Assembly: GCF_055900595.2 (NCBI RefSeq)
Contig: NZ_CM148325.1
Length of the DNA stretch: 64,000 nt
Direction: 5' to 3' (one strand)
Positions 3,887 through 48,487 of the stretch are shown here, piece by piece. The translations under genes and the position numbers were made by a program. The first letter of the stretch is position 1; each line of letters begins with the position of its first letter. The notes below the pieces were generated by a model. That model saw only the letters and a program-made list of their open reading frames with translations. It ran no database searches and had not been told where the DNA came from.

Positions 3887-4057
3887 TATCGCGTCCTCAA
3901 CAATGAATTTTGTGATGCAGTGCCTGGTGCCTCCAGGTGACGTTAACCAGTTAACAATTAACGTCGGATACAGAGAATCCACCCATAACACTGTTTTTGG
4001 TTTTAACTGTTCCGCGTGCGCTCAGCCGCATTCACCGCATCACAAAATTCACTTTAA

Positions 4058-4113
4058 AAACGGCGGCAGAGCAGTCACGGAGTAAAACTGATACCGCTAA
4101 ACGTCACCAGAAA
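4058..4113 (-). ncRNA. dicF: DicF small RNA (ftsZ-targeting sRNA of Qin-type prophages)
   Basis: Minus-strand sequence ttttctggtgacgtttagcggtatcagttttactccgtgactgctctgccgccg followed by a T-run; near-identical to DicF as I recall it. Confidence 0.8.
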
Positions 4114-4372
4114 ATTGATAACAGAGGGCGTTGCAGCGGGGTTGTCACTTAAGCGTATGGTCAACCTGACAACCCGGTGTCCTCAACGGGGAAGGAATAA
4201 CCCCGCCATACTTACCGCCGCGCCATTTCGCGGGTTGCCACAACCGGAAGCGCACGGTCGAATTAAATTTAACGACACCGTACAGTGAGACGAACTTCGC
4301 CGTGCGCTTTCGTGTTGTGTGCCTGCTTTTAACCACGTCAGGCGAGGTGGTATCCTTAAAATCACCACAGTT

Positions 4373-5105: not shown

Positions 5106-5311
5106 GCTGACCTCATTTCCCCTTAACGCCGGGGTAGCGGAACAAAAACCTGCTGCATAGTTATTAAAGTTGAACCCTGCCGTCATGTTCTTACGCCTCG
5201 GGCTGGCTACTTAACCCCTGACCACTGCCTGGTAACTCGACGTATTGCCCTGCATTCTGTGGGGCGGGGTGAGGGAATGAATGAAGTTTAGAAAAATGAA
5301 CATTTAAGGTC

Positions 5312-5333
5312 AATGTTTTTTTATCAAAACATT
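5312..5333. promoter_or_regulatory. Candidate left operator: palindrome AATGTTTT-N6-AAAACATT
   Basis: Inverted repeat in the cI-distal intergenic region; same half-site recurs next to the cI start; an extra AACATT half-site lies at 5299-5304. Confidence 0.35.
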
Positions 5334-5397
5334 TTAAGCAGGCAGCTGTTACGCCATCACTACGATGGCATACAGTTAATCAAATAGATGAGGTTGG

Positions 5398-6036
5398 TTA
5401 AATATCTTTTTGAATTTTAAAGCATACTCCCAATATGCAAGATAGATCATCCAGCATAATTGAAGGGTAGCGAGGATTCGTGGGGACTAAAAGAATATCC
5501 GGCCCTTCTATCTCCAGTTTGCGAATGACAGGCGTTGTGGTCCCTTTGGGTAAGGCAAGGACAATATTTCCTGGTTGTACGATTCGATCGGGATCAACAA
5601 AAACTGTTGAACCATTTGGGATGGAAACTCCACCACCAGATGTCGACATACTGTCACTCTCTAGAACAACAGCAAAGGTATTGGCCGGGATTTCTCCGAC
5701 AAGCTGCACACAAGAGGTTATTGAGGAATTTTTCATATAATCACTCCAGCTTGCTGCCTGCTGAAGTGATAGTAGCGGAACCGTTTTTATCGGCGGTAAA
5801 GATAGATCAAGCGAATCACCTGTATTTAACTCTCCTCCATTAAGAAGCCAATTTTCGTTTACTTTCAATATCTTTGCCAGTGAGCTTATGTAACGCGAGG
5901 ACGGCGCTCCTCCACCGTTCATCCATTGACTTACGGAGCCTTTTGATGCGCCAGTGGCATTGACAAGGTCTTTGCCTTTCAAGTTTAGCGCATGCATACG
6001 TTGGGTTATGCGTTCAGATATTGTTTGCTTGTTCAT
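5398..6036 (-). CDS. CI-like prophage repressor (HTH plus S24 LexA-like autopeptidase domain)
   Basis: 212 aa; N-terminal HTH region (LKGKDLVNATGASKGSVSQWMNG), C-terminal S24-like region; divergent from the cro-like gene. Confidence 0.85.
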   Translation of the reverse strand: MNKQTISERITQRMHALNLKGKDLVNATGASKGSVSQWMNGGGAPSSRYISSLAKILKVNENWLLNGGELNTGDSLDLSLPPIKTVPLLSLQQAASWSDYMKNSSITSCVQLVGEIPANTFAVVLESDSMSTSGGGVSIPNGSTVFVDPDRIVQPGNIVLALPKGTTTPVIRKLEIEGPDILLVPTNPRYPSIMLDDLSCILGVCFKIQKDI

Positions 6037-6054
6037 GTTTTGATTTTAAAACAC
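6034..6054. promoter_or_regulatory. Candidate right operator: ATGTTTT-N6-AAAACA palindrome
   Basis: Same half-sites as 5312-5333, located between cI and cro. Confidence 0.3.
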
Positions 6055-6069
6055 AGATGGTTTTGTTTC

Positions 6070-6099
6070 TTGACTTTCTTTGGTTTTGATTATTAAACT
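6070..6099 (+). promoter_or_regulatory. Candidate PR promoter (-35 TTGACT, -10 TAAACT, 18-bp spacer)
   Basis: Sigma70-like hexamers upstream of the cro-like gene with GGAG RBS at 6118-6121. Confidence 0.4.
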
Positions 6100-6128
6100 T
6101 TTGGCGTTCAGTTTTATGGAGCGAATCA

Positions 6129-6370
6129 TGAAAAAATCAGAAGTATTAGGCTATTTTGGCGGAGTTGTTAAAACAGCCGCCGCTCTAGGAACGTCAAAAA
6201 CCACAGTCAGCATGTGGGGGGAAGACGTTCCGTGGAAATGGGCGTTGCTAATTCAGGCAGTCACTGCCGGGGCGCTCAAATATGAGTTACACATACCGAC
6301 GGTTGTCATTCCCGGTTCTGATCATAATCCGCCTTCTAACCAAGGGGGGATTCATGAAAATCAAGCATGA
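6129..6370 (+). CDS. Cro-like HTH regulator
   Basis: MKKSEVLGYFGGVVKTAAALGTSKTTVSMWGEDVPW... small HTH protein divergent from cI. Confidence 0.75.
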
Positions 6371-6779
6371 ACACATCCGCATGGCGATGAATGCCTGGGC
6401 ACGTCCTGATGGCGAAAAAGTTCCGGCAGCTGGAATAACCCAGGCTTATTTTGAGTTGGGTATGACGTTTCCTAAACTGTACGACGACAGCCATCCGGAA
6501 GCCCTGGCTCGCAATACCCAGAAAATTTTCCGCTGGATAGAGAAAGACACCCCTGATGCAGTTGAAAAAATTCAGGCGTTGTTACCAGCGATCGAAAAGG
6601 CAATGCCACCTTTGCTGGTGGCCAGAATGCGCAGCCACAGTTCAGCTTATTTTCGGGAGCTGGTGGAGACGCGGGAGCGACTGGTGAGAGACGCTGATGA
6701 TTTTGTCGCAGTGGCAATCGCCGGTTTCAATCAGATGAACCGTGGTGGCCCGGCTGGAAATGCTGTGGCAGTACATTGA
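6354..6779 (+). CDS. CII-like / YdaT-family regulatory protein
   Basis: 141 aa starting MKIKHEHIRMAMNAWARPDGEK with a G-rich RBS; overlaps the end of cro. Confidence 0.6.
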   Translation: MKIKHEHIRMAMNAWARPDGEKVPAAGITQAYFELGMTFPKLYDDSHPEALARNTQKIFRWIEKDTPDAVEKIQALLPAIEKAMPPLLVARMRSHSSAYFRELVETRERLVRDADDFVAVAIAGFNQMNRGGPAGNAVAVH

Positions 6780-6850
6780 CTGACAATAGCCATATCGAAT
6801 CGCTTCCGGCAACTCGTGAGTAAAAAGATTCGGTATCAGAAGAGGTGAGT

Positions 6851-7921
6851 ATGGCTAACGCCTGGCTCAGATTATGGCATGACATGCCAAATGACCCTAA
6901 GTGGCGAACAATTGCCAGGGTGTCAGGGCAGCCAATTGCAACAGTGATGGCAGTGTATATCCACCTCCTGGTGAGCGCGTCACGAAATGTCACGCGAGGT
7001 CACATTGATGTCACGACAGAAGATTTGGCAAGTGCGCTCGACGTGACAGAAGAGGTAATTGATTCAATTTTGCAGACGATGCAGGGGCGGGTACTTGATG
7101 GTGATTTAATCACTGGATGGGAAAAACGCCAGGTGCTGAAAGAGGACAACGGTAATATTTCGCAAACCGCAAAATCTCCGGCAGAGCGCAAGAGGGCGCA
7201 GCGAGAGAGGGAAAGAAAGCGGGAACAAAATGGCGATTGTCACGGCGAGTCACGAAATGTCACGCACATGTCACGACGAGTCACGACAGATAAAGATACA
7301 GATAAAGATACAGATCAAGAAGATCAAAACACTATGGTCCATGGCGTAAAAAACGCCGCGAACCAGGCAGGGGATGTTCAGACCGTCAATCTTGGTCAGC
7401 CAGCAGGCACGACACCGGAAGCCGATTCAGCGTATGCGCTGAAAGCCGATTCGGGCGCTGTGCAGCAGGTGATGACCGCAAGGCAGGAGCAATCACACCA
7501 ACTTCAGCAGCCTGAAGCCGATTCCGCCATTCAGCGGGAAGCCGATCGGGTAGTCCCGGAAAACACCGGGCAGCCTGTGGGACGAGTGGATTATCCTGAT
7601 GTGTTCGAACAGGTCTGGCGGGAATACCCGTTGCGTGCCGGGGCAAACCCGAAGAAATCCGCTTTCAGTGCCTGGAAGGCCAGATTACGCGAGGGGGTGC
7701 CACCAGAGGCCATGCTGGATGGCGTGAGGCGTTACGCAAGATACCTGGCGGCTACCGGGAAAACGGGAACGGAATTTGTTCAGCGAGCGACGACGTTTTT
7801 TGGACCGGACCGGAATTTTGAAAACCCCTGGTTGCTCCCGGTAAGCGGTACGAACAACCAGCGTTGTGTGAATCATATTTCTGAACCGGATACCGAAATT
7901 CCACCGGGCTTCAGGGGGTAA
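6851..7921 (+). CDS. Replication initiation protein (O-like, DUF1376/YdaU-type N-terminus) containing origin iterons
   Basis: N-terminal MANAWLRLWHDMPNDPKWRTIARVSG...; GAGG RBS; two clusters of GTCACG repeats inside the gene. Confidence 0.7.
   Translation: MANAWLRLWHDMPNDPKWRTIARVSGQPIATVMAVYIHLLVSASRNVTRGHIDVTTEDLASALDVTEEVIDSILQTMQGRVLDGDLITGWEKRQVLKEDNGNISQTAKSPAERKRAQRERERKREQNGDCHGESRNVTHMSRRVTTDKDTDKDTDQEDQNTMVHGVKNAANQAGDVQTVNLGQPAGTTPEADSAYALKADSGAVQQVMTARQEQSHQLQQPEADSAIQREADRVVPENTGQPVGRVDYPDVFEQVWREYPLRAGANPKKSAFSAWKARLREGVPPEAMLDGVRRYARYLAATGKTGTEFVQRATTFFGPDRNFENPWLLPVSGTNNQRCVNHISEPDTEIPPGFRG
6979..7019. repeat. Iteron cluster 1 (GTCACG-type repeats at about 10-bp phasing)
   Basis: gtcacgaaatgtcacgcgaggtcacattgatgtcacgacag. 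Confidence 0.7.
7239..7315. repeat. Iteron cluster 2 plus adjacent tandem repeat gataaagataca x2
   Basis: gtcacggcgagtcacgaaatgtcacgcacatgtcacgacgagtcacgacag, then ataaagatacagataaagatacagat; the 16-mer tcacgaaatgtcacgc is shared exactly with cluster 1. Confidence 0.7.
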
Positions 7922-7961
7922 GTGTGTATTTCAGGTCATGAGGTAATTTTCAGGAGGACTT

Positions 7962-8387
7962 GTGGCAAAAGTTTTTACACAAGAAGAGCGAGAAAAAATT
8001 AAGGGGCAGGTTGTTGAACTTGTACGTCTGAGTGGTCGCGAGACGTTACGGGCTCTGGAGGCTAAAACCGGTGCATCAAGGTATTACATAAGCACTCTCG
8101 CCAGAGAGCTGGTTGCCAGCGGCGATGTATACAACTCTGGTTACGGATTATTCCCGTCTGAACAGGCTCGTAAGGACTGGCAAAATGCCCGCAAAAAACT
8201 CTCAAGGGCAAAGCTGAAGAAAAAAACATCTGTGGTTGATCCGGACCTTATCTGGTCATTACCTGACGGAGAAATACGTCGCTACGACAGTCGTCTAAAC
8301 ATAATCTGTCGCGAGTGCCGGAAGAGCGAAGTTATGCAGCGCATACTGGCATTTTATCAGGGAAATGTTTGGTATTTATTGAAATGA
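7962..8387 (+). CDS. Hypothetical phage protein (possible HTH), replication-module position
   Basis: 141-aa ORF with GTG start 4 nt after AGGAGG; no recognisable catalytic motif. Confidence 0.5.
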   Translation: MAKVFTQEEREKIKGQVVELVRLSGRETLRALEAKTGASRYYISTLARELVASGDVYNSGYGLFPSEQARKDWQNARKKLSRAKLKKKTSVVDPDLIWSLPDGEIRRYDSRLNIICRECRKSEVMQRILAFYQGNVWYLLK

Positions 8388-8595
8388 CGAGATTAAAGAG
8401 CATTAGTTCAGATATTAATTGACACTTCGGTTGCATAAGACTAGAACTAGTGTGATTGGCATCTTTGTACCAAAAACGGACATTACAGTGTATGGTTAAT
8501 TCTGCCTGTCAAATAACTTACATTCATCAAATGATCGAAATTATGACTTAGCTCAACAATTAGGTTTAGCATGGGTCATATGACTAGAGTGTAGC

Positions 8596-8612
8596 AACTT
8601 TCTGCTATAATT
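8596..8612 (+). promoter_or_regulatory. Candidate extended -10 promoter (TGcTATAAT)
   Basis: ctgctataat upstream of the KTSC-like gene with AAGGA RBS. Confidence 0.4.
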
Positions 8613-8627
8613 TAATAAGGATAAAAA

Positions 8628-8855
8628 ATGCCAGCTTATGCTAATAAAGGCGGTAATTCGGGTATAGTGTTTTATGAGATTACTCCAGATGCTATCACAG
8701 TACAGTTTAAAGATGGATGGAAATACGTTTACGATTCTACAAAACCAGGGGCTTCAACGGTCTCTAGGATGAAAGAGTTAGCCCAGGCTGGGCATGGGCT
8801 AAATAGTTTTATTAGTAGTGTGGTTAAGAAAAATTTCTCACGTAAATACCTTTAA
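8628..8855 (+). CDS. KTSC-domain-like small protein
   Basis: 75 aa with VFYEITPDAITVQFKDGWKYVY motif; good RBS. Confidence 0.55.
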   Translation: MPAYANKGGNSGIVFYEITPDAITVQFKDGWKYVYDSTKPGASTVSRMKELAQAGHGLNSFISSVVKKNFSRKYL

Positions 8856-9008
8856 TTTTAATTGAGGGTGGGAAGGACTATCACCCTCATAATTCTTCAC
8901 CATTCAATCAAGAGCAATTCAAGGTGATTTGCTCTGTACATAGTCGGTTAGTTAGCACTTCGTAATTTATTGAATAGAAGGCTTTTGGAACAGTATCTTC
9001 ACTCGTGC

Positions 9009-9257
9009 TTATCGCCCAGCAGATTTAGCAAGAATAGTCTCGAGCATTTCTGGTACGTTGCCTTTAGCATTGATAGTTGCTGTTCGGTAAGCTAGTTGAT
9101 TTTTTGAGAGATTGATTCCTGTAAGTGCTTCAATTTCGTTGCAGGCCTTACCCCATTCTACCCAGTTTTCAGACAAAAAAGATTCAAGATGATCCGCAAA
9201 TATAGCAATATCATTAGTAACTGTTGCAGCTGGAATATAGACTATGCGAAAAGCCAT
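9009..9257 (-). CDS. Hypothetical protein (82 aa), possibly Rem-like
   Basis: Clean 82-aa ORF convergent with the KTSC gene; size and position near hok recall Qin rem; no motif recognised. Confidence 0.4.
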   Translation of the reverse strand: MAFRIVYIPAATVTNDIAIFADHLESFLSENWVEWGKACNEIEALTGINLSKNQLAYRTATINAKGNVPEMLETILAKSAGR

Positions 9258-9579
9258 TGGTTGACTACTTCAATGTATCCTGTATCAACAATGAAAATGT
9301 CCGTTCTTCGCTCACAGAATTAGTGCGACAGCTTCGCACCAAGAGCTGACATTGTAATATCCGACAGGCTATTGCCTGTCAGTTAACAGTTACGTGTTAT
9401 AAAAGGTCAGGCGGGATCCTGACTAGGTGTGTTTAAAGAAGTGCTGGTGGTGAGCGGGTGTTGTGTCCAATTTCCACAGAAAAAAATCTGAGAAACTATA
9501 CCCAATAGTTGTATTGAATCACTGACGAGACAGCCTCATATTTATCAGGACTGGTGTACTTCCAATTCAGGAGGTTGTC

Positions 9580-9669
9580 GTGCTGGTTCTCAAATGTGCG
9601 CTAGCTATTGCGGCTGTAATGGCAATTTATTGTCTTGCTGTTGTTCTTACGGATCGCCTTTCTGATTGA
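9580..9669 (+). CDS. Candidate small hydrophobic peptide (29 aa, GTG start)
   Basis: AGGAGG at 9569-9574, 5 nt before GTG; encodes VLVLKCALAIAAVMAIYCLAVVLTDRLSD; absent from the ORF track because of size and GTG start. Confidence 0.35.
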   Translation: MLVLKCALAIAAVMAIYCLAVVLTDRLSD

Positions 9670-9823
9670 TTTTATATTGGCGAGGTGACGTGAGTTAAGT
9701 AGAATTGCTGCGGGTGCTTGAGGCTATCTGCCTCAGGCATGAACACCAACGGCAGATAGAGAAAAGCCCCAGTTAACATTACGCGTCCTGCAAGACGCTT
9801 AACATTAATCTGAGGCCAATTTC

Positions 9824-10036
9824 ATGCTAGACACATGTAGGTTAGCCTCTTACGTGCCGGAAGGCAAGGAGAAGCAGGCTATGAAGCAGCAAAAGGCGAT
9901 GTTAATCGCCCTGATCGTCATCTGTTTAACCGTCATAGTGACGGCACTGGTAACGAGGAAAGACCTCTGCGAGGTACGAATCCGAACCGGCCAGACGGAG
10001 GTCGCTGTCTTCACAGCTTACGAACCTGAGGAGTAA
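9824..10036 (+). CDS. mok: mok-like reading frame overlapping hok
   Basis: 70-aa frame that starts upstream of and reads through hok, as in hok/sok loci. Confidence 0.5.
   Translation: MLDTCRLASYVPEGKEKQAMKQQKAMLIALIVICLTVIVTALVTRKDLCEVRIRTGQTEVAVFTAYEPEE
9881..10036 (+). CDS. hok: Hok/Gef-family type I toxin
   Basis: 51 aa MKQQKAMLIALIVICLTVIVTALVTRKDLCEVRIRTGQTEVAVFTAYEPEE, Hok family (HokD/RelF-like as I recall it). Confidence 0.85.
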   Translation: MKQQKAMLIALIVICLTVIVTALVTRKDLCEVRIRTGQTEVAVFTAYEPEE

Positions 10037-10106
10037 GAGACTAAGCGGGGGAGAAATCCCTCGCCACCTCTGATGAGTCAGGCATCCTCAATGCACCCGC
10101 GCTTAA

Positions 10107-10125
10107 CCCGCTTCGGCGGGTTTTT
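10107..10125 (+). terminator. Rho-independent terminator after hok
   Basis: cccgcttcggcgggttttt. Confidence 0.7.
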
Positions 10126-10140
10126 CTAGCATCTACCTGG

Positions 10141-10170
10141 TTGACAAAGTCGATGTTAAATGGAAATATG
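10141..10170 (+). promoter_or_regulatory. Candidate promoter of the 10203-11959 cassette (TTGACA-N17-AAATAT)
   Basis: Perfect -35 hexamer at 10141-10146, weak -10; a second TTGACA at 10172-10177. Confidence 0.3.
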
Positions 10171-10202
10171 GTTGACACCAAAACAACAAGGATATTACGG
10201 TC

Positions 10203-10817
10203 ATGCAGAATTTATCTCAACAGTTGTTAGAAGCATATGACAAGGAGTGCCGCAAAGAGCTTTCGATCGCGTTAGCACAGGCTTATCTTCATTCGCATAT
10301 GAAGGCAAAAGAGTTTGGTTCTTTTTGGGCTCAAGCACAGTCATATTTGCGCTGGTTTTATGCCGATGCATTGCTTGAGAATGCGGCTAAGCGTGTGGGG
10401 CTGGATTTTGAAGTCGGTAGCAATGCTGCTAAAAATTGTAAACACATTGCGATTCACTCGAACAACTGGAAAATGACGGCACATCATTTATCGGGTAATG
10501 CGCCACTTCCTAAGCAGGCATTGTATAGAGCTGTTTACGCTAATCAAAATTATGAATTGAATTTTGGGGATGAAAATGCCGACTCCCTGGATGGGAGAGC
10601 GTCTGGTGGACATGTTTATATGTTACATGATGGCAGTAATCAGCACTTGTCCAAACTGAATTTAACTGTTCCTTCTTCGGATAATTACGGGATTCTTTAT
10701 ACTGAGTCTTTACCAATTATGACGATGGTAGAAGTTGAAGCAGAAAATGTGGATTCTGAGATTGAAGATAAAATCAAGATTCTTACCGAACAAATAATTA
10801 AATCACAGCAATCATGA
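10203..10817 (+). CDS. Hypothetical protein (204 aa), first gene of a two-gene accessory cassette
   Basis: ORF with AAGGA RBS; no recognisable domain; stop overlaps the start of the next gene (ATGA). Confidence 0.6.
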   Translation: MQNLSQQLLEAYDKECRKELSIALAQAYLHSHMKAKEFGSFWAQAQSYLRWFYADALLENAAKRVGLDFEVGSNAAKNCKHIAIHSNNWKMTAHHLSGNAPLPKQALYRAVYANQNYELNFGDENADSLDGRASGGHVYMLHDGSNQHLSKLNLTVPSSDNYGILYTESLPIMTMVEVEAENVDSEIEDKIKILTEQIIKSQQS

Positions 10818-11959
10818 GCATGAATATCGCACAAACACCATTTACTGATAAATCGTTTAATCCTCGTCGCCTTGAGGAGGCAAGAGAGGCAAAAGGGTTG
10901 ACGATGGCTGAACTTGCCAGAGTGCTCAATATTTCAAGACAAGCTATTTCGTCATTTGAGAAGGGGTTGAAGTCTCCCTCTGCTGATACACTTTCTGCAA
11001 TAGCCAAGGTGTTAGGATTTCCAGAACGATTTTTCTTAGCCTCCAGTGCTTCTCCATCTCTGGAGGGGGCGATTCATTTTAGAAGTCGTTCAACTGCGAC
11101 CAAAAAGGCTCGAGTTACAGGGAAAACACGTGGGCGTTGGGCGGCATTAATATTGGATGAATGTCTAAAATATGCTCAATTACCAGATGTGGTTCTGCCT
11201 GAATTCGATATTATTGATTTTGAGGTTCTGTCTCTATCTGATATTGAGGATATGTCCACCCAATTAAGGCGTTTTTGGGGGTTAGGTGATGGTCCAATAC
11301 TCAATTTAACTAGACTTGTTGAAAATAAAGGAATCGTGGTTTCTCATTTACCTTCTGGTGAGAAAGTTGATGCCTTTTCGTTCTGGCATAATGGGCGGCC
11401 TTTAATTATGTTAGATAGCTCGAAGACGGCTGTTCGCATGCGATTTAGTCTTGCTCATGAACTTGGCCATTTAATTATGCATAGGGCAGTGGAGGATGAC
11501 TACCTGAATGATAAAGAATTATTCGACCTGGTGGAGTTGCAGGCCGATTATTTTGCCTCCAGCTTTTTAATGCCAGCCACCACTTTCGGGCGTGAATTTT
11601 ATAGTCCAAATTTATCAGCGTTAGAACGATTAAAACTACGTTGGATTACATCTATCGGTAGTATTGCCATGAGGAGTCATAGCCTTAAGTTAATCAGCGA
11701 TAATCAGAAAAGCTATATATTTAAGCAATTAGCGCCATTCCATCGTAGGGAGCCGTTAGATGATGCAATCCCAAAAGAAGAGCCTGAGTTACTTAATAAG
11801 TTACTTTTACTTCTTGATAAGCATTCAATCATAAAGGTAACTGAGTTAACTGATATCTTTGCTCTTCCCTTAAATGAGTTATCTGCAATTACACGATTTA
11901 AAGAATCAGATATGATTCATTCTGACAATGTTATTTCATTTACCATAAAACAAAAATAA
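10814..11959 (+). CDS. HTH_XRE - ImmA/IrrE (COG2856, M78-like) zinc metallopeptidase fusion protein
   Basis: N-terminal XRE HTH (LTMAELARVLNISRQAISSFEKG); HEXXH motif HELGHLIMH at 11456-11470 followed by ELQADYFASSFLMP, typical of ImmA/IrrE. Confidence 0.8.
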   Translation: MSMNIAQTPFTDKSFNPRRLEEAREAKGLTMAELARVLNISRQAISSFEKGLKSPSADTLSAIAKVLGFPERFFLASSASPSLEGAIHFRSRSTATKKARVTGKTRGRWAALILDECLKYAQLPDVVLPEFDIIDFEVLSLSDIEDMSTQLRRFWGLGDGPILNLTRLVENKGIVVSHLPSGEKVDAFSFWHNGRPLIMLDSSKTAVRMRFSLAHELGHLIMHRAVEDDYLNDKELFDLVELQADYFASSFLMPATTFGREFYSPNLSALERLKLRWITSIGSIAMRSHSLKLISDNQKSYIFKQLAPFHRREPLDDAIPKEEPELLNKLLLLLDKHSIIKVTELTDIFALPLNELSAITRFKESDMIHSDNVISFTIKQK

Positions 11960-11971
11960 TTCTCATTCATA

Positions 11972-11994
11972 CCCGCCTCGGCGGGTTTTTGTTT
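11972..11994 (+). terminator. Rho-independent terminator after the cassette
   Basis: cccgcctcggcgggtttttgtttt. Confidence 0.7.
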
Positions 11995-12065
11995 TACGTA
12001 TTCTGGTTTACAATCCACAGGCCAGCCTGAACAACTGGCACCTGCTGCGCCAGCAGAGACAACCG

Positions 12066-39970: not shown

Positions 39971-40570
39971 ATGCGTAAAGTTTGTGCAGCCATTTTGTCC
40001 GCAGCCATCTGTCTGTCCGTATCCGGTGCGCCTGCATGGGCATCTGAACATCAGTCCACGCTGAGCGCGGGGTATCTTCATGCCTCGACGAACGTTCCCG
40101 GCAGCGATGATCTTAACGGGATTAACATGAAATACCGTTATGAGTTTACGGACACACTGGGGCTGGTGACGTCATTCAGCTATGCAGGAGACAAGAATCG
40201 CCAGCTTACCCGTTACAGCAATACCCGCTGGCATGAAGATTCCGTGCGTAACCGCTGGTTCAGCGTGATGGTGGGGCCGTCTGTGCGCGTGAATGAATGG
40301 TTCAGCGCGTATGCGATGGCGGGTATGGCTTACAGCCGTGTGTCGACTTTTTCCGGGGATTATCTCCGCGTAACTGACAATAAGGGGAAAACGCACGATG
40401 TGCTGACCGGAAGTGATGACGGTCGCCACAGCAACACGTCTCTGGCGTGGGGAGCTGGCGTGCAGTTTAACCCGACCGAATCCGTGGCCATTGATATTGC
40501 TTATGAAGGCTCCGGCAGTGGTGACTGGCGCACTGACGGTTTCATCGTGGGTGTCGGTTATAAATTCTGA
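39971..40570 (+). CDS. lom: Lom-like outer-membrane protein (Ail/Lom family)
   Basis: Signal peptide plus beta-barrel, ends with aromatic residue; lambda Lom-like. Confidence 0.85.
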
Positions 40571-40623: not shown

Positions 40624-41330
40624 TGCACAGAAAACCCCCAGCTAGGCTGGGGGTTCCGGAAAGCTTTCAGCTTTGAGCCAGTTATTAAAACCCCTTTTGA
40701 TTTGTTAAAACACCTTGCGGTCTGGCAACTGCAAGTGTCAAACAAGAAATCAAAAGGGGGTCCCAATGGGGGACGAAAAGAGCTTAGCGCACACCCGCTG
40801 GAACTGTAAATATCACATAGTTTTTGCGCCGAAATACCGAAGACTGGCGTTTTACGGAGAGAAGCGTAGGGCGATAGGCAGTATTTTGAGAAAGCTGTGT
40901 GAGTGGAAAAGCGTACGGATTCTGGAAGCAGAGTGCTGCGCAGATCATATCCATATGCTTGTGGAAATCCCACCCAAAATGAGCGTATCCGGCTTTATGG
41001 GATATCTGAAAGGGAAAAGCAGTCTGATGCTTTACGAGCAGTTTGGGGATTTGAAATTCAAATACAGAAACAGGGAGTTCTGGTGCCGAGGGTACTATGT
41101 CGATACGGTGGGTAAGAACACGGCGAAGATACAGGACTACATAAAGCACCAGCTTGAAGAGGATAAAATGGGGGAGCAGTTATCGATTCCATATCCGGGC
41201 AGCCCGTTTACGGGCCGTAAGTAACGAAGTTGAATGCAAATGTCAGATCGTATGCGCCTGTTAGGGCGCGGCTGGTAACAGAGCCTTACAGGCGCATTTG
41301 AAAAACCTCCGGCTATGCCGGAGGATATTT
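40621..41330 (+). mobile_element. IS200-family insertion sequence (about 710 bp, boundaries approximate)
   Basis: Left-end hairpin cccccagctaggctggggg, second stem-loop over the RBS, tnpA, right-end hairpin cctccggctatgccggagg. Confidence 0.8.
40766..41224 (+). CDS. tnpA: IS200 transposase TnpA (HUH Y1 transposase)
   Basis: MGDEKSLAHTRWNCKYHIVFAPKYRR...HIHMLVEIPPKMSVS matches IS200 TnpA. Confidence 0.9.
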   Translation: MGDEKSLAHTRWNCKYHIVFAPKYRRLAFYGEKRRAIGSILRKLCEWKSVRILEAECCADHIHMLVEIPPKMSVSGFMGYLKGKSSLMLYEQFGDLKFKYRNREFWCRGYYVDTVGKNTAKIQDYIKHQLEEDKMGEQLSIPYPGSPFTGRK

Positions 41331-41345
41331 ATTTGTGGAGTGGAT

Positions 41346-43751
41346 ATGGCAGCAGTAAAAATCTCAGGTGTGCTGAAAGATGGTGCGGGAAAACCAATAC
41401 AGAACTGCACTATTCAACTGAAGGCAAAGCGTAACAGCACCACGGTACTGGTGAACACGGTGGCTTCTGAAAATCCGGATGAAGCCGGACGTTACAGCAT
41501 GGATGTTGAGTATGGCCAGTACAGCGTCACCCTGCTGGTTGAAGGTTTTCCGCCTTCACATGCCGGGACCATTACCGTCTATGAAGGCTCCAGACCAGGT
41601 ACGCTGAATGATTTTCTCGGTGCCATGACGGAAGATGATGTCATGCCGGAGGCATTGCGTCGTTTTGAGGCAATGGTGGAAGAAGTGGCACGCAACGCCG
41701 AAGCCGCCTCTCAGAGCGCAGCGGCGGCAAAGAAATCCGAAACTGCAGCGGCATCATCAAAGAACGCGGCGAAAACCTCAGAAACGAATGCAGCTAATAG
41801 TGCACAGGCGGCAGCGACCTCAAAGACTGCATCGGCAAACTCCGCGACAGCAGCCAAAAAATCAGAAACCAACGCGAAAAATAGCGAGACAGCCGCAAAG
41901 ACGAGCGAAACCAACGCAAAGTCCAGCCAGACGGCAGCGAAAACCAGCGAAACGAATGCCAAAGCCAGTGAAACTGCGGCAAAAAACAGCCAGGTTGCAG
42001 CAGCCCAAAGCGAGAGCGCGGCAGCCGGTTCTGCGACTTCAGCAGCTGGATCAGCAACTGCTGCGGCTAACAGCCAGAAAGCTGCGAAGACGAGTGAAAC
42101 TAACGCAAAGTCCAGCCAGACGGCAGCGAAGACCAGCGAAACGAATGCCAAAACCAGCGAAACTGCGGCGAAAAACAGTCAGGATGCAGCAGCCCAAAGC
42201 GAGAGTGCTGCAGCTGGTTCTGCAAGCGCGGCGGCTGCTTCTGCCACTGCATCAGCTAACAGTCAAAAAGCAGCAAAAACCAGTGAAACCAACGCAAAGG
42301 CGAGCGAGACTGCGGCGGCGAACTCGGCGCAAGCATCGGCAGCAAGCCAGACAGCAGCTAAAGCAAGTGAAGACGCAGCCAGAGAGTATGCAAGCCAGGC
42401 AGCGGAGCCGTATAAACAAGTTTTGCAGCCGTTGCCCGATGTGTGGATACCGTTTAATGATTCACTGGATATGATTACGGGCTTTTCGCCATCATATAAA
42501 AAAATTGTTATTGGCGACGATGAAATAACAATGCCTGGCGACAAGATTGTAAAGTTTAAACGCGCATCGAAAGCAACTTACATTAATAAATCTGGTGTGC
42601 TGACAGAGGCTGCCATTGACGAGCCACGATTTGAACGTGATGGCCTGCTTATTGAGGGGCAAAGAACTAACCTGCTAATCAATTCAACAAATCCGACTAA
42701 ATGGAACAAGTCGTCAAATATGATCTTAAGTGCATCAGGTGTAGATGATTTCGGATTCCAGTACGCAAAATTTACATTAAAACCAGAAATGGTAGGGCAA
42801 ATTTCAGCGATTAACATAGTAACCGTTTCCGGCAGTAAAGGTTTTGATGTAACAGGCGGAGAAAAGTATGTAACCATATCATGCAGGGTGCAAAGTGGCA
42901 CTCCAAATTTAAGATGCCGATTACGATTTGAAAACTATGATGGTTCTACCTACACATTCTTAGGTGACGCTTACTTAAATACGACAGATTTATCTATTGA
43001 TAAGACGGGTGGTGCCGCTAATCGCATTACTGCAAGGGCTGTTAAAGATGAAGCAAGCAAATGGATCTTTTTTGAGGCGACAATTAAGGCACTTGATACA
43101 GAAAATATGATAGGTGGAATGGTTCAGTATGCCCCGGCAAAAGGAGTGGGCACTGGCGCGGATGATTATATTTATATTGCGACCCCTCAAGTTGAAGGTG
43201 GGGCGTGCGCTTCATCGTTTATTATAACAGGCGCATCCCCTGTAACACGCGCCAGCGATATTGTGACGGTCCCCATTTCTCTAAATTGGTGCAATCCCGC
43301 TATTAGTTCATTAGCAGAAGTTAATACCAATTGGGATGAATCGCCAAACAAAGAAGGTAGCGCACGTATTCTTAATATTTCCACTACGGGAGATACAACT
43401 GAAATTGCAGATGAAAGTTATATGTATTTGGGGTATACATCTTTGGGAGCACGCGCAATCATTACAAATGGTAAAGGCACTAAAATAGAATATAAAAGCG
43501 TTATAGAACGACCAGAGAGAAAAAGCATTATCGGCTTTAGATTCACAGAAAGTCGAGAATTGTGTGTTGTGGTTAACGGTAATATTGGTGCTAAGGTAGT
43601 TTCTCCTTATAAAAAACACAAATATACAGGAGGCTTCATTAATATTGGTGGTCAATCATCATCCGGCAACCGTCACCTATTTGGACACGTTCGAAATCTG
43701 CGTATTTGGCACAAGGCATTGACTGATGCTCAGATGGGGGAGTCAATCTAA
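41346..43751 (+). CDS. Side tail fibre protein (Stf-like)
   Basis: N-terminus MAAVKISGVLKDGAGKPIQNCTIQLKAKRNSTTV matches Stf; Ala/Ser/Thr-rich repeats; divergent C-terminal domain. Confidence 0.85.
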   Translation: MAAVKISGVLKDGAGKPIQNCTIQLKAKRNSTTVLVNTVASENPDEAGRYSMDVEYGQYSVTLLVEGFPPSHAGTITVYEGSRPGTLNDFLGAMTEDDVMPEALRRFEAMVEEVARNAEAASQSAAAAKKSETAAASSKNAAKTSETNAANSAQAAATSKTASANSATAAKKSETNAKNSETAAKTSETNAKSSQTAAKTSETNAKASETAAKNSQVAAAQSESAAAGSATSAAGSATAAANSQKAAKTSETNAKSSQTAAKTSETNAKTSETAAKNSQDAAAQSESAAAGSASAAAASATASANSQKAAKTSETNAKASETAAANSAQASAASQTAAKASEDAAREYASQAAEPYKQVLQPLPDVWIPFNDSLDMITGFSPSYKKIVIGDDEITMPGDKIVKFKRASKATYINKSGVLTEAAIDEPRFERDGLLIEGQRTNLLINSTNPTKWNKSSNMILSASGVDDFGFQYAKFTLKPEMVGQISAINIVTVSGSKGFDVTGGEKYVTISCRVQSGTPNLRCRLRFENYDGSTYTFLGDAYLNTTDLSIDKTGGAANRITARAVKDEASKWIFFEATIKALDTENMIGGMVQYAPAKGVGTGADDYIYIATPQVEGGACASSFIITGASPVTRASDIVTVPISLNWCNPAISSLAEVNTNWDESPNKEGSARILNISTTGDTTEIADESYMYLGYTSLGARAIITNGKGTKIEYKSVIERPERKSIIGFRFTESRELCVVVNGNIGAKVVSPYKKHKYTGGFINIGGQSSSGNRHLFGHVRNLRIWHKALTDAQMGESI
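41901..42278 (+). repeat. Tandem direct repeat (about 189 bp x2) inside stf
   Basis: acgagcgaaaccaacgcaaagtccagccagacggcagcgaaaaccagcgaaacgaatgcc... repeated with few substitutions. Confidence 0.75.
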
Positions 43752-44032
43752 TGAAAGATTTAACACTCAAATTTGCCGACAGGGCCGACTTTTCGGCTTT
43801 TATGGGAAGTATTGGCTATTATAATGACGAGTCGATGCAGGATGATATTCTGATTGATGTGATAGGTAACGTGTACAAAGAAACCGGAGAGCTGACTGAA
43901 GATGGCGAACCGGTATGTGTTAAGGAAGATGGATATTTTGTAAACGTGCGCATCATTAAGGATACGCAAATATCGTCATTATTCGATGAATACGCGGTTG
44001 CTGTTGAGCATCAACTTCGTGGCTGGATGTGA
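43751..44032 (+). CDS. Hypothetical tail-fibre-associated protein (93 aa)
   Basis: ORF starting at the stf stop. Confidence 0.5.
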   Translation: MKDLTLKFADRADFSAFMGSIGYYNDESMQDDILIDVIGNVYKETGELTEDGEPVCVKEDGYFVNVRIIKDTQISSLFDEYAVAVEHQLRGWM

Positions 44033-44041
44033 GGTAGAGAA

Positions 44042-44746
44042 ATGGCTACATCAACAGTAATTCCGGGAGACATCACCACGCTGAAGGGAGATGTTAGTAA
44101 AGCAAAGGAAGATATTTCCTCTATTAACGGAAAAGTATCAACGCTTCAGACTGATATGGCCAGTGCAAAGCAGGATATCAGCACCAGATACACAAAAACT
44201 GAAGTTGATAATAAGCTGAAAAACAAAGTGGAAGTGAACGATCTGGAAAGTGGTCGTTATGGCGGAGATTTTTACCCGCTGACTGGCCGTGAAGCGTTTT
44301 ATTTATGGGGATTGGGCACAACTACAGCGGCGGCAAATCTTTATCTTAATCCTGACCCTGCAATTTCGTCTGTGCTGCGGTCAACATCGTCTATCCGCTA
44401 TAAACATTCAGTAGAGACGATAGATTCAGAGCACGCCGATCTCATTTTCAGGATGCGCCCTGTGTGGTACAGGTCGCAATGCGAAAATGACAGGCGTGAC
44501 TGGGGATTCTATGGATTGATTGCCGAGGAAGTTGGAGAAATTGCCCCTCAGTTTGTTCACTGGCGACCAGCCAACGAAGATGATGCACCGGAAACCATTT
44601 CCAGCAATGGCCTTGTTGCCGAAGGTGTAATGTACGAACGTCTGGTTGTTCCACTGATTCACCATATCCAGAAGCTGACTGAAAGAGTTGATGAACTTGA
44701 GTCAGAATTAAAGTTGTTATCCGTTTCCCGAAGCGATATCGGATAA
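44042..44746 (+). CDS. Tail-fibre-related protein with C-terminal chaperone-like (S74-type) domain
   Basis: N-terminal coiled-coil; C-terminal GFYGLIAEEVGEIAPQFVHWRP resembles the intramolecular chaperone domain of fibre/spike proteins. Confidence 0.5.
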   Translation: MATSTVIPGDITTLKGDVSKAKEDISSINGKVSTLQTDMASAKQDISTRYTKTEVDNKLKNKVEVNDLESGRYGGDFYPLTGREAFYLWGLGTTTAAANLYLNPDPAISSVLRSTSSIRYKHSVETIDSEHADLIFRMRPVWYRSQCENDRRDWGFYGLIAEEVGEIAPQFVHWRPANEDDAPETISSNGLVAEGVMYERLVVPLIHHIQKLTERVDELESELKLLSVSRSDIG

Positions 44747-44756
44747 AGGAGGCGTA

Positions 44757-45050
44757 ATGGATATAACACCTTTCCTTCATGCACTTTGTGCTGTGGCTGC
44801 GCAGGTACTGGTTGGTCTTTTTACCGGAAACTGGGCTTACGGGGCGATAGCTGGTTGTACGTTCTTCATTGCGCGTGAACATACCCAGGCAGAATATCGC
44901 TGGATTGAAATGTTCGGGCATGGCAAGCGTATGAATATGCCGTGGTGGGGCGGTTTTGATCCGCGTGCGTGGGATGTGGCAAGCCTGATGGATTTTGCTG
45001 TGCCGGTGGTGGCGTGTCTGCTGGTCTGGCTGTTGGTTAATCGTGGGTGA
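44757..45050 (+). CDS. Small membrane protein (97 aa, 2 TM)
   Basis: RBS AAGGAGG before the ATG; two hydrophobic helices. Confidence 0.5.
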   Translation: MDITPFLHALCAVAAQVLVGLFTGNWAYGAIAGCTFFIAREHTQAEYRWIEMFGHGKRMNMPWWGGFDPRAWDVASLMDFAVPVVACLLVWLLVNRG

Positions 45051-45064
45051 AAAAAGGTGAGCTG

Positions 45065-45178
45065 TATATGCAACGGAGGAAGAAACCTCGTTGCGGGAAG
45101 CCTTGAAGAAGTATCGGGTGTTGCTGAACCGTGTTGATACGTCAACTGCACAGGATATTGAATGGCCAGCACTGCCGT
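45065..45178 (+). pseudogene. Remnant of a tail fibre assembly gene (Tfa C-terminus only)
   Basis: Translation [34 protein letters not shown] matches the conserved Tfa C-terminus; no N-terminal part. Confidence 0.65.
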
Positions 45179-45277
45179 AGGGTAAAACATATAAATTCTA
45201 TAATTAGATGTATCTTTCCATTTACGGCAAGGAAGGGGGCTTGGAAGACGTAAGGCATCTCACACCGAGATTATTTT

Positions 45278-45868
45278 TTATATGTCAGGTGTCTGAAGTT
45301 TTGCTTTGGCTCTTAAAATGGTTTGCCGCGAGGTTTTGAATTCCCGGGCAATGGCACTTATACTTACACCTGACTTAATCCGTTCGAATACCACCTGTTT
45401 CTGTTCTTCATTTAACACAGGTGGTCGACCAAAACGTTTCCCTGCGCCCCGGGCTCTTACTATCCCGGAATGAGTGCGTTCAAGTAAAAGGTCTCGTTCA
45501 AATTCAGCGACTGCTGAAATTACTTGCATCATCATTTTTCCTGTTGGACTGGTCAGGTCAATGCCCCCCAATGCTAAGCAATGCACTCTGATACCTGTTT
45601 CGGTCAGTTGTTCCACTGTTTTCCTGATATCCATTGCATTACAACCAAGGCGATCCAGTTTTGTCACAATCAATTGATCACCACATTTCAGGCGAGCAAG
45701 CAACCGGTTAAAACCAGGACGCTCACTGGTTGCTGCTGAGCCGCTAATGTGTTCTTCGATTATTTGCTGAGGTTTGATTTTAAAACCTGCACTTTCGATT
45801 TCCCGGCGTTGATTTTCGGTGGTCTGATCCAGCGTTGATATCCGACAGTAAGCAAAAATTCGAGACAT
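45278..45868 (-). CDS. pin: Pin-type serine DNA invertase
   Basis: [29 protein letters not shown]... matches PinQ/PinR as I recall them. Confidence 0.9.
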
Positions 45869-46184
45869 AGTGAGACTCTATACGAAATTGGTGTTCATAT
45901 CATAATGCATCTCAGAAAATAATTTTGATTATTTTTGTGCATGTTTGTATGTACACGTTCGAAAATAAACGAATGCGTATGCAACCCCGTAATTTTGGTG
46001 AGACCCAAAATCGATTTTGTGAAAAATGGCTTTAACTCGGTTTGTTTTTCGAGTTCCGGGCGGACTCAAGGAAGAAGAATAGTGTTGCGTGTTATTTTAA
46101 CCAGATTTCAAGTTGTTTGGTCGTGGAAAAGTGGAGCAAAATGTTGTTAAAGTGGAAAAATGATAAAAAAGTAAGTTTATTATA

Positions 46185-46418
46185 TTACATTTTACCATTT
46201 AAATTTTGGTTGTCTTTAAGAACTGATATCGCTGTTTGTAATAATTCTTTGTTATCCAGCCATGATTTTTTCTTTATGTTTCCTTCAATGTAATCAAGCA
46301 ATGTTCTGGTATTGATAGGTCTTCCCTGTTTTGCTACTTCCACTACAGCATCCCCTAGGATAATTCTGACTTCAGGAAGCTGCGCAGGGAACCACTTTAG
46401 GGTGTCTTTTGATTTCAT
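46185..46418 (-). CDS. ydfK: YdfK-like cold-shock-associated protein
   Basis: 77 aa MKSKDTLKWFPAQLPEVRIILGDAVVEVAKQGRPINTRTLLDYIEG... matches YdfK/YnaE. Confidence 0.8.
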   Translation of the reverse strand: MKSKDTLKWFPAQLPEVRIILGDAVVEVAKQGRPINTRTLLDYIEGNIKKKSWLDNKELLQTAISVLKDNQNLNGKM

Positions 46419-47203
46419 GAATATATTCCTTAAAATATTATTGATTTTCATTGCGATATTGTATGTCTGATTCAGGATATGTTGACTTATACATCGGTTT
46501 TGTCTGGGTTATTGGATATGCCAATCCCTAATTTTATTAGAGCATGACTAAAAATGCTGAATATGATAAGGAGCGAAGTGATTATCAGTATGCTGTTCAT
46601 ATAGCCTCGAATTATTAATGTGTTATATATGATATAGTTGACAATTTTTATCCTGGGTGTTCTTAAAGTTCGTAGATAAACATTGTCGTTTCAGGTATAC
46701 AGGAATGCTAACAGATGGCGGCAAAAATCAGGCGGTTTATGGCGCAAGCTGAAGTGGCAACTGCAAACTATCTTATGCAGAGACTCTACACGGATTGGGT
46801 TTAAAAGTATACATAGATAACAGTTTTTATCTGAAGAAGAAAAATATCAAGGTGATATAGCCTATATGCCTTTGATGCGGAGGAATGAATGTGATGGGAG
46901 TGATGTATCTGAATAGTTGAAAAACCGCAGACACGCCTTATGCAAGAACGTGCTGCGGTTGGCTGGTAAATTTTTCGATAGTGCGAGTATTGAATGATTT
47001 CCAGCCGTTATTGATTTTACGCGTAACTCCATGAAAAAACTACTTATCTGTTGAGGAGTTTTTTTGGGGCATATATGGGACAGAAATAGGCCCCAGATAG
47101 ACACTGAGATCGAACTTAGGATGCTTTTTAAAAAATGCAACTATCTGAAAAAACCTAGAAAACGCCAAGGAAACCACAGGATGGGAAAAAACACCTGTGA
47201 ATC

Positions 47204-48487
47204 ATGGATTTCCAGTTATATTCGCTCGGCGCAGCGTTAGTGTTTCATGAAATATTTTTTCCTGAATCATCAACGGCAATGGCGTTAATTCTGGCAATGG
47301 GAACCTACGGTGCAGGTTATGTGGCGCGTATTGTCGGAGCATTTATTTTCGGCAAAATGGGCGACAGAATCGGGCGTAAAAAAGTGCTCTTTATTACCAT
47401 CACTATGATGGGGATCTGTACCACCTTAATTGGTGTGCTGCCGACCTATGCACAAATTGGTGTGTTTGCGCCAATTTTGCTGGTGACGCTGCGTATTATT
47501 CAGGGGCTGGGGGCAGGCGCGGAAATTTCCGGTGCCGGTACGATGCTGGCGGAATATGCGCCAAAAGGTAAGCGCGGAATTATCTCCTCATTTGTTGCTA
47601 TGGGGACTAACTGCGGAACCTTGAGCGCAACGGCAATCTGGGCCTTTATGTTCTTCATTCTCAGTAAAGAGGAACTGTTGGCGTGGGGATGGCGTATACC
47701 GTTCCTGGCGAGCGTTGTCGTGATGGTCTTTGCTATCTGGTTGCGTATGAATCTGAAAGAAAGCCCGGTCTTTGAGAAGGTTAACGACAGCAACCAACCG
47801 ACAGCAAAACCTGCACCTGCTGGTAGCATGTTCCAGAGCAAATCCTTCTGGCTGGCAACAGGGCTGCGTTTTGGTCAGGCTGGTAACTCAGGTTTAATTC
47901 AGACTTTCCTTGCAGGCTATTTAGTGCAGACGTTATTGTTTAACAAAGCAATTCCAACAGATGCATTGATGATCAGTTCGATTCTCGGCTTTATGACCAT
48001 TCCGTTCCTTGGTTGGTTATCCGATAAAATTGGTCGCCGGATCCCGTATATTATTATGAATACCTCTGCGATTGTGCTGGCGTGGCCAATGCTTTCTATC
48101 ATCGTAGATAAAAGCTATGCCCCGAGCACCATTATGGTTGCACTGATTGTGATTCATAACTGTGCGGTGCTGGGATTATTTGCTCTGGAAAACATTACCA
48201 TGGCAGAAATGTTCGGCTGTAAAAACCGCTTTACCCGGATGGCCATTTCTAAAGAAATTGGTGGTCTTATCGCTTCCGGTTTTGGTCCTATCCTGGCGGG
48301 TATTTTCTGCACCATGACGGAATCCTGGTATCCGATCGCCATTATGATCATGGCATATTCAGTGATTGGTTTAATCTCTGCGCTGAAAATGCCAGAAGTG
48401 AAAGACCGTGATTTAAGTGCACTGGAAGATGCCGCGGAAGATCAACCGCGTGTTGTAACAGCTGCGCAACCTTCAAGAAGTCTGTAA
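47204..48487 (+). CDS. ydfJ: MFS transporter YdfJ, 5'-truncated by the prophage insertion
   Basis: 427-aa MFS ORF starting at the prophage/host junction; matches the ydfJ C-terminal fragment. Confidence 0.8.
   Translation: MDFQLYSLGAALVFHEIFFPESSTAMALILAMGTYGAGYVARIVGAFIFGKMGDRIGRKKVLFITITMMGICTTLIGVLPTYAQIGVFAPILLVTLRIIQGLGAGAEISGAGTMLAEYAPKGKRGIISSFVAMGTNCGTLSATAIWAFMFFILSKEELLAWGWRIPFLASVVVMVFAIWLRMNLKESPVFEKVNDSNQPTAKPAPAGSMFQSKSFWLATGLRFGQAGNSGLIQTFLAGYLVQTLLFNKAIPTDALMISSILGFMTIPFLGWLSDKIGRRIPYIIMNTSAIVLAWPMLSIIVDKSYAPSTIMVALIVIHNCAVLGLFALENITMAEMFGCKNRFTRMAISKEIGGLIASGFGPILAGIFCTMTESWYPIAIMIMAYSVIGLISALKMPEVKDRDLSALEDAAEDQPRVVTAAQPSRSL

Follow-up and report, generated by a model that had tools for sequence, protein, structure and literature searches.

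A Pin gene without an invertible segment: a probable fibre-cassette swap beside a conserved PinR/PinQ block at the right end of a Qin-type prophage

Why would an intact gene for a Pin-type DNA invertase lie beside tail-fibre genes where there is no segment for it to flip? This question is raised by a 64,000-nucleotide stretch of DNA from contig NZ_CM148325.1 of the RefSeq assembly GCF_055900595.2 (hereafter the window), wherein a side tail fibre gene, stf, is followed by three small open reading frames (ORFs), here called orf93, orf234 and orf97, by a remnant of the fibre chaperone gene tfa, and by pin, the part downstream of stf spanning positions 43751-45868. An earlier note on this DNA had started from the premise that Pin should flip adjacent DNA, and had suggested that the segment was locked or rearranged. 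Based on the analysis reported here, we propose that the locus is very probably the right end of a Qin-type prophage, in which a swapped fibre cassette adjoins a conserved orphan Pin block, namely that its arrangement is the already known layout of the Rac and Qin prophages of Escherichia coli K-12 plus an ordinary mosaic exchange of fibre genes. What is directly observed is the anatomy of the locus and its junctions, a lack of crossover sites and of inversion isomers, and a Pin identical to K-12 PinR.

The boundaries of the exchange are sharp. In BLASTN comparisons with the phages mEp460_ev081, PhiR34_1 and Kati and with K-12 Rac, homology to the classical PinQ phages and to Rac stops at 41698, about 119 codons into stf, and restarts at 45069, and a separate alignment agrees. 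The intervening 3.4 kb make up another fibre module (41699..45068, plus strand), which takes the place of the distal ~3 kb of stf and of most of tfa, and from 45069 to 46962 the DNA is 98-99% identical to that of K-12 Qin and Rac, through the tfa 3′ end, the spacer, pin, ydfK/ynaE and ynfT/ynaM. Two modules unrelated to each other would be neighbours here, the fibre cassette at 41699-45068 and the block of tfa 3′ end, pin, ydfK and ynfT from 45069 onward. Recombination would have put the cassette in place of the ordinary distal Stf and the larger part of the Tfa chaperone gene, with the left join falling after the conserved N-terminal domain of Stf and the right join inside the conserved tfa 3′ end, leaving a 111-bp stub. 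Judged by its relatives, the stretch 41699-45068 appears to be a replacement fibre cassette that is also present in viable phages: it is carried by the isolated phages IdasGreatGrand, PhiR49_1 and Tritos, and the set orf93-orf234-orf97 was found in 722 genomes. In four sampled E. coli contexts the cassette lies on the strand of stf every time, and two of the four have no adjacent pin; in the PM06121 prophage the cassette is followed by sitABCD.

The tfa stub (45070-45180, plus strand) marks the right-hand junction. It consists of 36 codons and a stop codon, has no start codon, and matches the C-terminal ends of the Tfa family (positions 167-202 of 239 in phrog_105 and 146-181 of 207 in phrog_188); compared with a full-length Tfa, which has ~190 residues and a start codon, no more than the final 36 codons are left, and RefSeq calls them a pseudogene. 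The earlier note was right that a C-terminal remnant of Tfa is all that is left, a 3′ stub, and wrong in its extent, since its coordinates 45065-45178 are out of frame and its 38 codons should be 36. Homology to tfaQ/tfaR begins at 45068/9, and the stub is colinear with the 3′ end of the normal single tfaR/tfaQ, on the strand of stf. The same right junction occurs in Tritos, where pin is present, and in PhiR49_1, where pin is absent; in PhiR49_1 and two prophages the cassette and this junction are followed by a methyltransferase gene instead of pin, and phage 21 keeps the first ~58 bp of the stub, after which sitABCD begins. Because the same stub and cassette occur in phages and prophages without pin, the stub is best read as the recombination scar of the cassette swap, and as such it would say nothing about a lost invertible segment. 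The suggestion of a locked or rearranged segment loses its footing here, as the stub goes with the cassette even where pin is lacking.

An E. coli of serotype O158:H23 offers a further example at the same Qin locus (7948-11724 of its locus), wherein a 1200-residue Stf with its own S74 end is followed by a tfa stub and pinQ. Its stub was independently placed, with a junction ~15-20 nt upstream of that in the window. By this comparison the O158:H23 locus would represent a third fibre solution and points to cassettes having been replaced more than once, independently, with the right join in the 3′ end of tfa. Given these varied contexts, the conserved tfa 3′ end is a recurrent right-hand crossover point for the exchange of fibre cassettes, and the stub itself may be dead DNA, because the fibre type of the cassette would, as we propose, have no need of Tfa.

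Whether the window holds sites at which an invertase of this family could act was examined with the e14 pix sites, read directly from K-12 (TTCTCCCAAACCAAGGTTTTCGAGAG and TTCTCCCAAACCAACGTTTATGAAAA), and with a matrix of 10 half-sites taken from Hin, Gin and PinE sites only (hix, gix and pix), for which the hix and gix sequences are those that we take to be the standard ones. The crossover consensus TTNTCNNAAACCNNGGTTTNNGANAA has no match with up to three mismatches in the 64 kb, and the pixL half-site with up to two mismatches gave nothing above chance. The best 26-mer by the matrix in the 64 kb scores 13.3, equal to the mean maximum of the shuffles (13.3 ± 1.9), where the real sites that built the matrix score 19-31, and in 45060-45290 the best 26-mer scores −1.8. 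Neither pin nor the cassette is bracketed by well-matched inverted repeats of at least 22 nt, and those of lesser length do not exceed chance. With nothing above chance from the consensus and matrix searches of the 64 kb, and no bracketing inverted repeats, the observation of the earlier note that there is no obvious invertible segment and that there are no convincing crossover sites is borne out.

Two candidate sites were considered and rejected. The weak crossover candidate of the earlier note actually lies at 45216-45234, within the spacer between the convergent tfa stub and pin (45181..45277); an overlapping 26-mer, starting at 45222, has a negative matrix score of −4.4, and there is no inverted partner. 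The other, GGAAGAAACCTCGTTGCGGGAA at ~45086-45107 in the tfa stub, looks gix-like by eye through its CGAGGTTT core, yet it is one base out of register, has no partner, scores negatively by the matrix, and is conserved tfa coding sequence. The spacer 45181-45277 is the same as in K-12 Rac and Qin except for one base and is exactly that of Tritos; when it was considered as a hairpin or terminator, its folding was not significant (z ~ −1.3 for either strand), and a search for terminator-like sites in it came back empty.

The orientation of the locus was followed in 5426 complete E. coli genomes, which were searched with the native 43751-45868 and with an artificial flipped query, in which 43751-45068 was turned into its reverse complement beside the pin block. 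As one colinear place, the native order occurs in 283 of these genomes, and the flipped order in none. The 26-bp inverted repeats of the gix/pix type and the coexistence of both orientations, named in the earlier note as the signs of a true inversion system, are thus both missing. The fibre-related ORFs are all on the plus strand with a single tfa stub, in place of two oppositely oriented chaperone genes or alternative fibre C-termini, and the statement that all ORFs between stf and pin are on the plus strand holds for every one that is annotated in E. coli SJC33, which holds an identical 2.5 kb of the locus, or that matches a protein family. The absence of inversion is the normal state of phages of the Rac/Qin type, not a decayed state.

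The pin gene (45278-45868, minus strand) is intact and encodes a PinR/PinQ-type small serine recombinase of 196 residues, which matches the DNA invertase family phrog_125 with an E value of 6.6e-69 and is 100% identical to K-12 PinR, 99% to PinQ and 38-39% to e14 PinE. Its whole length can be aligned with Gin (4m6f, E 2.7e-29; the best PDB match), with gamma-delta resolvase and with PinE, and it has the N-terminal catalytic domain with its nucleophilic Ser (S11, within YCRISTLDQ) and the C-terminal helix-turn-helix of this class. It keeps S11, R9, R73 and the E-helix motifs; measured against the complete set of active-site Arg residues (R8, R68 and R71 of Tn3/gamma-delta), R9 and R73 are present, and Cys76 (TGT, ~45641-45643, minus strand) sits at the third, the R71 position. 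This Cys is common to the window Pin, K-12 PinQ and PinR, and Arg takes its place in Gin, PinE, gamma-delta resolvase and a homologue of 61% identity in an Erwinia phage. The latter phage, LS-2018a, which holds the closest relative outside E. coli, was considered as a possible witness of the ancestral arrangement; because its homologue lies between the terminase and portal genes and has no inverted repeats, it is uninformative on an ancestral segment.

The surroundings of this gene are equally conserved. The window pin is nearly identical to its K-12 counterparts, convergent to stf-tfa, and adjoins the prophage end; 11 coliphage records, representing ten distinct phages, encode a Pin that is 99-100% identical, and each of the three classical PinQ coliphages examined carries a single stf and a single tfa, with pin convergent to them, while Tritos, the fourth examined, has the cassette in their stead. 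The premise that Pin should flip adjacent DNA finds no support for this type of gene, as Rac, Qin and these three phages each have a single stf-tfa pair with a convergent pin.

Could the locus still be the ruin of a switch, in which an ancestral segment flipped by Pin, with alternative fibre ends and two tfa genes, was stripped of one half and of its crossover sites, leaving a tfa stub and a stranded invertase? A truncated tfa does adjoin pin, and family invertases of e14, Mu and P1 adjoin flip-flop fibre segments, that of e14 having been read here. However, the relic of an inverted gene set would be expected on the opposite strand, and the stub lies on the strand of stf, colinear with the tfaR/tfaQ 3′ end; stub and cassette occur where pin is absent; the window pin runs towards the fibre operon, whereas pinE points away from its segment, its 5′ end adjoining pixR; no second gene set is present in any PinQ/R phage or prophage examined; and the matrix reveals no degenerate pair of pix-like half-sites. 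Such a decay is hence very unlikely in our judgement. That PinQ/R might instead recognise sites other than hix, gix or pix, flanking the cassette or pin, and invert them unnoticed, would be in keeping with its divergence from PinE and with a matrix that knows the Hin, Gin and PinE sites only. Serine invertases, however, need two similar inverted sites, and the search for inverted repeats offers none around pin or the cassette; the flipped form is absent from all the genomes in which the native form was counted 283 times, against a reported 33% of deposited sequences with the P segment of e14 inverted (PMC12529663); and PinQ/R have been reported to act on the canonical e14 pix sites (PMC12529663). 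We therefore hold cryptic inversion in cis to be extremely improbable, and return to the reading of a swapped cassette beside an orphan Pin block.

What Pin may do in such a block is suggested by work on K-12. Kirigo et al. (2025; PMC12529663) reported that PinQ and PinR of K-12 use the canonical pix sites of e14 and invert its 1797-bp P segment, and that this inversion creates a chimeric StfE2, which blocks the adsorption of phage T2; their BLAST searches detected inversions in e14 only and none in Qin or Rac, and Tritos, 2H10 and mEp460_ev081 are listed among the carriers of PinQ. The main text of the study describes no test of PinQ without PinE present. A Pin without sites in cis would leave the neighbouring DNA uninverted and, if active, could act in trans, on sites of the pix type in other parts of the genome. 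Because the window Pin is identical to PinR, action in trans would be the best available explanation for it, and we infer that Pin may act in this way in the window's own host.

Several points weigh against this proposal. In the set of complete genomes, pinQ/R with the spacer is present at a coverage of at least 80% in 2757 of 5426 (2598 records at an identity of at least 99%), whereas the complete K-12-type P segment of e14 is present in 284; and SJC33, with its identical locus, has no e14 at icd, so that the only documented target of Pin is probably missing from the window's host. Cys76 stands in PinQ/R at the R71 position of Tn3/gamma-delta, where the substitutions R71A and R71K of Tn3 resolvase abolish recombination and mutation of R71 cuts cleavage ~1000-fold (PMC2794168). 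Additionally, deletion of pinE in K-12 locks the P segment despite the presence of pinQ and pinR (PMC12529663), so that autonomous catalysis by PinQ/R is not firmly established. For the fibre cassette, the roles given below to orf93, orf234 and orf97 are read only from gene neighbourhood and domain content.

The points on Pin could be taken to mean that it is catalytically weak or non-catalytic, and is kept for DNA binding or for the modulation of other invertases, or merely hitch-hikes in a block beside attP. Cys76 in place of the Arg of Gin, PinE and the Erwinia phage homologue, the loss of recombination in the R71 mutants, the locked P segment of the pinE deletion and the excess of pinQ/R, roughly ten times commoner than the K-12-type P segment, would all agree with it. 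We nevertheless consider it quite unlikely, as overproduction of PinQ moved the P segment from ~30% to 88% inverted and deletion of pinQ lowered inversion (PMC12529663). The protein also retains its catalytic Ser, R9, R73 and intact E-helix motifs. In Hin, Gin and Cin the enhancer is located in the 5′ part of the invertase gene, and the deletion of pinE probably also removes an enhancer in cis; if it does, the result of that deletion cannot separate the two enzymes. Only tentatively, and with some doubt, do we raise a general role of PinR/PinQ beyond that of a stand-alone invertase, be it on other targets, in modulating co-resident invertases such as PinE, or in a phage-encoded function near attP; behind it stand the Cys at the third Arg position, the conservation at an identity of at least 99% in about half of the complete genomes of E. 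coli as well as in viable lambdoid phages, and a sole documented substrate that is present in ~5% of the genomes. For the locus as a whole, the cassette swap beside a conserved Pin block is the reading that we carry forward.

The swapped cassette could act as a host-range module made up of the distal Stf, orf93, the optional S74 fibre protein orf234 and the membrane protein orf97. Its first component belongs to stf (ATG at 41343..43751, plus strand; the ORF opens with TTG at 41298), which encodes a side tail fibre of 802 residues with a full-length match to phrog_1419 (1-793 of 793). Residues 4-133 are the conserved N-terminal attachment domain (Pfam phage_tail_N), and residues 436-637 match NCBIfam GTA_spike_fiber; the distal Stf resembles the head-spike fibre of RcGTA (PDB 6tb9, Rcc01080, E 4.9e-5), and part of it is common to the lateral fibres of T1-like and T5-like phages. 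At 41838-42317, ten in-register copies of a 21-nt-periodic repeat encode an Ala/Ser/Thr/Lys-rich shaft, and the same stretch contains a 189-nt tandem duplication at 83% identity. The stf ORF is intact here; in several genomes the RefSeq pipeline mis-annotates stf as a C-terminally truncated pseudogene. Between lom (39971-40570) and stf, a tnpA gene of the IS200/IS605 family (40715-41224, plus strand) has been inserted, which is missing from the otherwise identical SJC33 locus; tnpA sits at the same lom-stf junction in 153 complete genomes, including ST131 strains, and the insertion may alter read-through from the tail operon into stf.

The three small genes that follow appear to be under purifying selection, the ratio of nonsynonymous to synonymous substitution rates (dN/dS) lying mostly at 0.1-0.3 across pairs (range 0-0.48). 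The ATG of orf93 (43751-44032, plus strand; 93 residues) overlaps the stop codon of stf, and in lambdoid, T1-like, T5-like, Dhillonvirus and rV5-like phages a homologue is the next gene behind the lateral or side fibre gene. The family is small, with 48 clusters at 50% identity, and always lies immediately 3′ of lateral or side fibre genes, in at least five groups of coliphages. The AlphaFold 2 (AF2) model of orf93 is a confident alpha/beta sandwich (pLDDT 88), and a structural search with it returned no informative fold match. From gene neighbourhood and domain content, orf93 is probably a conserved fibre partner, acting as a fibre accessory or assembly factor.

A short fibre protein of 234 residues is encoded by orf234 (44042-44746, plus strand; dN/dS 0.08-0.29), in which the S74-like chaperone domain noticed earlier was confirmed by a domain search: residues 116-172 match Pfam Peptidase_S74 (PF13884, E 2.2e-5). 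The protein matches the intramolecular-chaperone end of the T5-type L-shaped tail fibre 8hqz_d, and its S116-x-x-R119-x-K121, the motif of the Ser-Lys dyad, aligns with SGIEYKKDV of that fibre; by domain, motif and C-terminal position after a fibre part, it is predicted to carry an S74 intramolecular chaperone. The N-terminal part is coiled-coil-like and resembles the needle repeats of P22 gp26, the protein also has a small tip, and the match to phrog_3299 covers positions 1147-1384 of 1385, the last 238, at the end of long one-piece fibres of 1385 residues. It shares only the first 32 residues and the chaperone end with the 346-residue variant of Tritos, and is absent from phage 21. With the same kind of evidence as for orf93, orf234 is probably an optional second fibre subunit, which would trim off its own predicted self-cleaving S74 chaperone.

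The last gene of the cassette, orf97 (44757-45050, plus strand; 97 residues; phrog_1443; dN/dS 0-0.41), encodes the protein with two transmembrane segments of the earlier note, and hydropathy agrees with two clear hydrophobic segments at residues ~5-24 and 75-95, while its phage 21 homologue is annotated as a putative membrane protein with two transmembrane domains. No significant match was found in Pfam, nor any in NCBIfam or PADLOC. The family follows stf in phage 21 and lambda-like phages, lies between the tailspike gene and int in the P22-like podovirus Gally (4001-4288 of the Gally locus), and also occurs in Aeromonas and Halomonas phages. The product of orf97 is thus predicted to be a small, moron-like inner-membrane protein placed after receptor-binding genes, and, to go by this neighbourhood, the usual slot of such genes, it could contribute to lysogenic conversion or superinfection exclusion.

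The prophage that contains the locus is lambdoid, of the Qin type and full length (~47 kb); it is inserted in ydfJ, and the locus forms its right end. The locus is so placed because the window is colinear with the 46-kb Qin-type lambdoid prophage of SJC33, which runs in the order int, xis, immunity, Q, lysis, terminase, head, tail, J, lom and stf, and because positions 1-856 of the window equal the int/xis region of the isolated phage Tritos. In SJC33 the RefSeq annotation gives, in order, a tail-fibre-domain protein, two hypothetical proteins, a tfa pseudogene 'missing N-terminus', pinQ, ydfK, ynfT and an interrupted ydfJ. In the window the small ydfK-like and ynfT-like genes (46185..46600, minus strand), named after this annotation, complete the block that is conserved at the right end of Rac/Qin-type prophages, and the prophage end precedes ydfJ′ (47204-48487). 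Within 5143-12049, a part of the prophage that differs from SJC33, which there has an anti-phage dCTP deaminase, an overlapping plus-strand gene pair (10203-10817 and 10814-11959) matches PADLOC RmrT (E 7.5e-10) and RmrA (E 5.5e-102); the RmrA match also hits the spr1629-family repressor/antitoxin of NCBIfam, and the pair is likely a prophage-borne defence or toxin-antitoxin module.

The main worth of these results is a correction for annotation and scanning, in that a Pin-like gene beside the tail-fibre genes of a lambdoid prophage is not to be taken for a phase-variation switch that has broken down. The PinR/PinQ block would be a conserved neighbour, without substrate, of a fibre locus that exchanges whole cassettes through recombination at two places, the N-terminus of stf and the 3′ end of tfa, and tfa stubs would arise when Tfa-dependent fibres give way to fibres with their own chaperone. 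A biochemical question of some value follows the same line, namely whether PinR/PinQ with Cys76 is competent alone, and what its targets are in the many e14-free strains.

Compared with known systems, the window stands closest to the two K-12 prophages. Rac has the order stfR-tfaR-pinR-ynaE-ynaM and Qin stfQ-tfaQ-pinQ-ydfK-ynfT, both with pin convergent to the fibre operon as in the window, and both with a single stf-tfa pair, no second inverted gene set and no invertible segment, the last of which the window likewise lacks. With Qin it shares the insertion site in ydfJ; it differs from Rac and Qin in that its prophage is full length (~47 kb) and that the distal stf and most of tfa have been swapped for the cassette. 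Among isolated lambdoid coliphages, HannyBb, PhiR63_1 and Tritos have orf93, orf97 and pin together, as in the window. Tritos has the order stf, orf93, S74 fibre protein, orf97, tfa stub and pin, with an identical right junction and a Pin that is 100% identical, and differs in its S74 protein, the 346-residue variant with the limited similarity noted above. Phage 21 resembles the window in carrying homologues of orf93 (53% identity) and orf97 (97%) in the same order after stf, and departs from it in lacking orf234 and pin, with the sitABCD operon following.

The S74 protein of the cassette finds its counterparts in the L-shaped or branched lateral fibres of the T5 type (pb1, and LtfA/LtfB of DT57C), which end in a C-terminal S74 chaperone with Ser-x-x-Arg-x-Lys as does orf234; orf234, however, has only 234 residues, so that its predicted mature part would be ~115 residues. 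In T5-like and small siphoviruses, lateral fibres are built from one long polypeptide or from at least two proteins (PMC8594841). The inversion systems proper, PinE/P of e14, Gin/G of Mu, Cin/C of P1 and Hin/H of Salmonella, have a recombinase of the same superfamily as Pin beside tail-fibre genes, but, unlike the window, they have two inverted 26-bp sites that flank alternative fibre ends, along with two chaperone genes. In e14, moreover, pinE is transcribed away from the P segment and begins beside pixR, whereas the pin of the window converges with the fibre operon, as it does in Rac and Qin.

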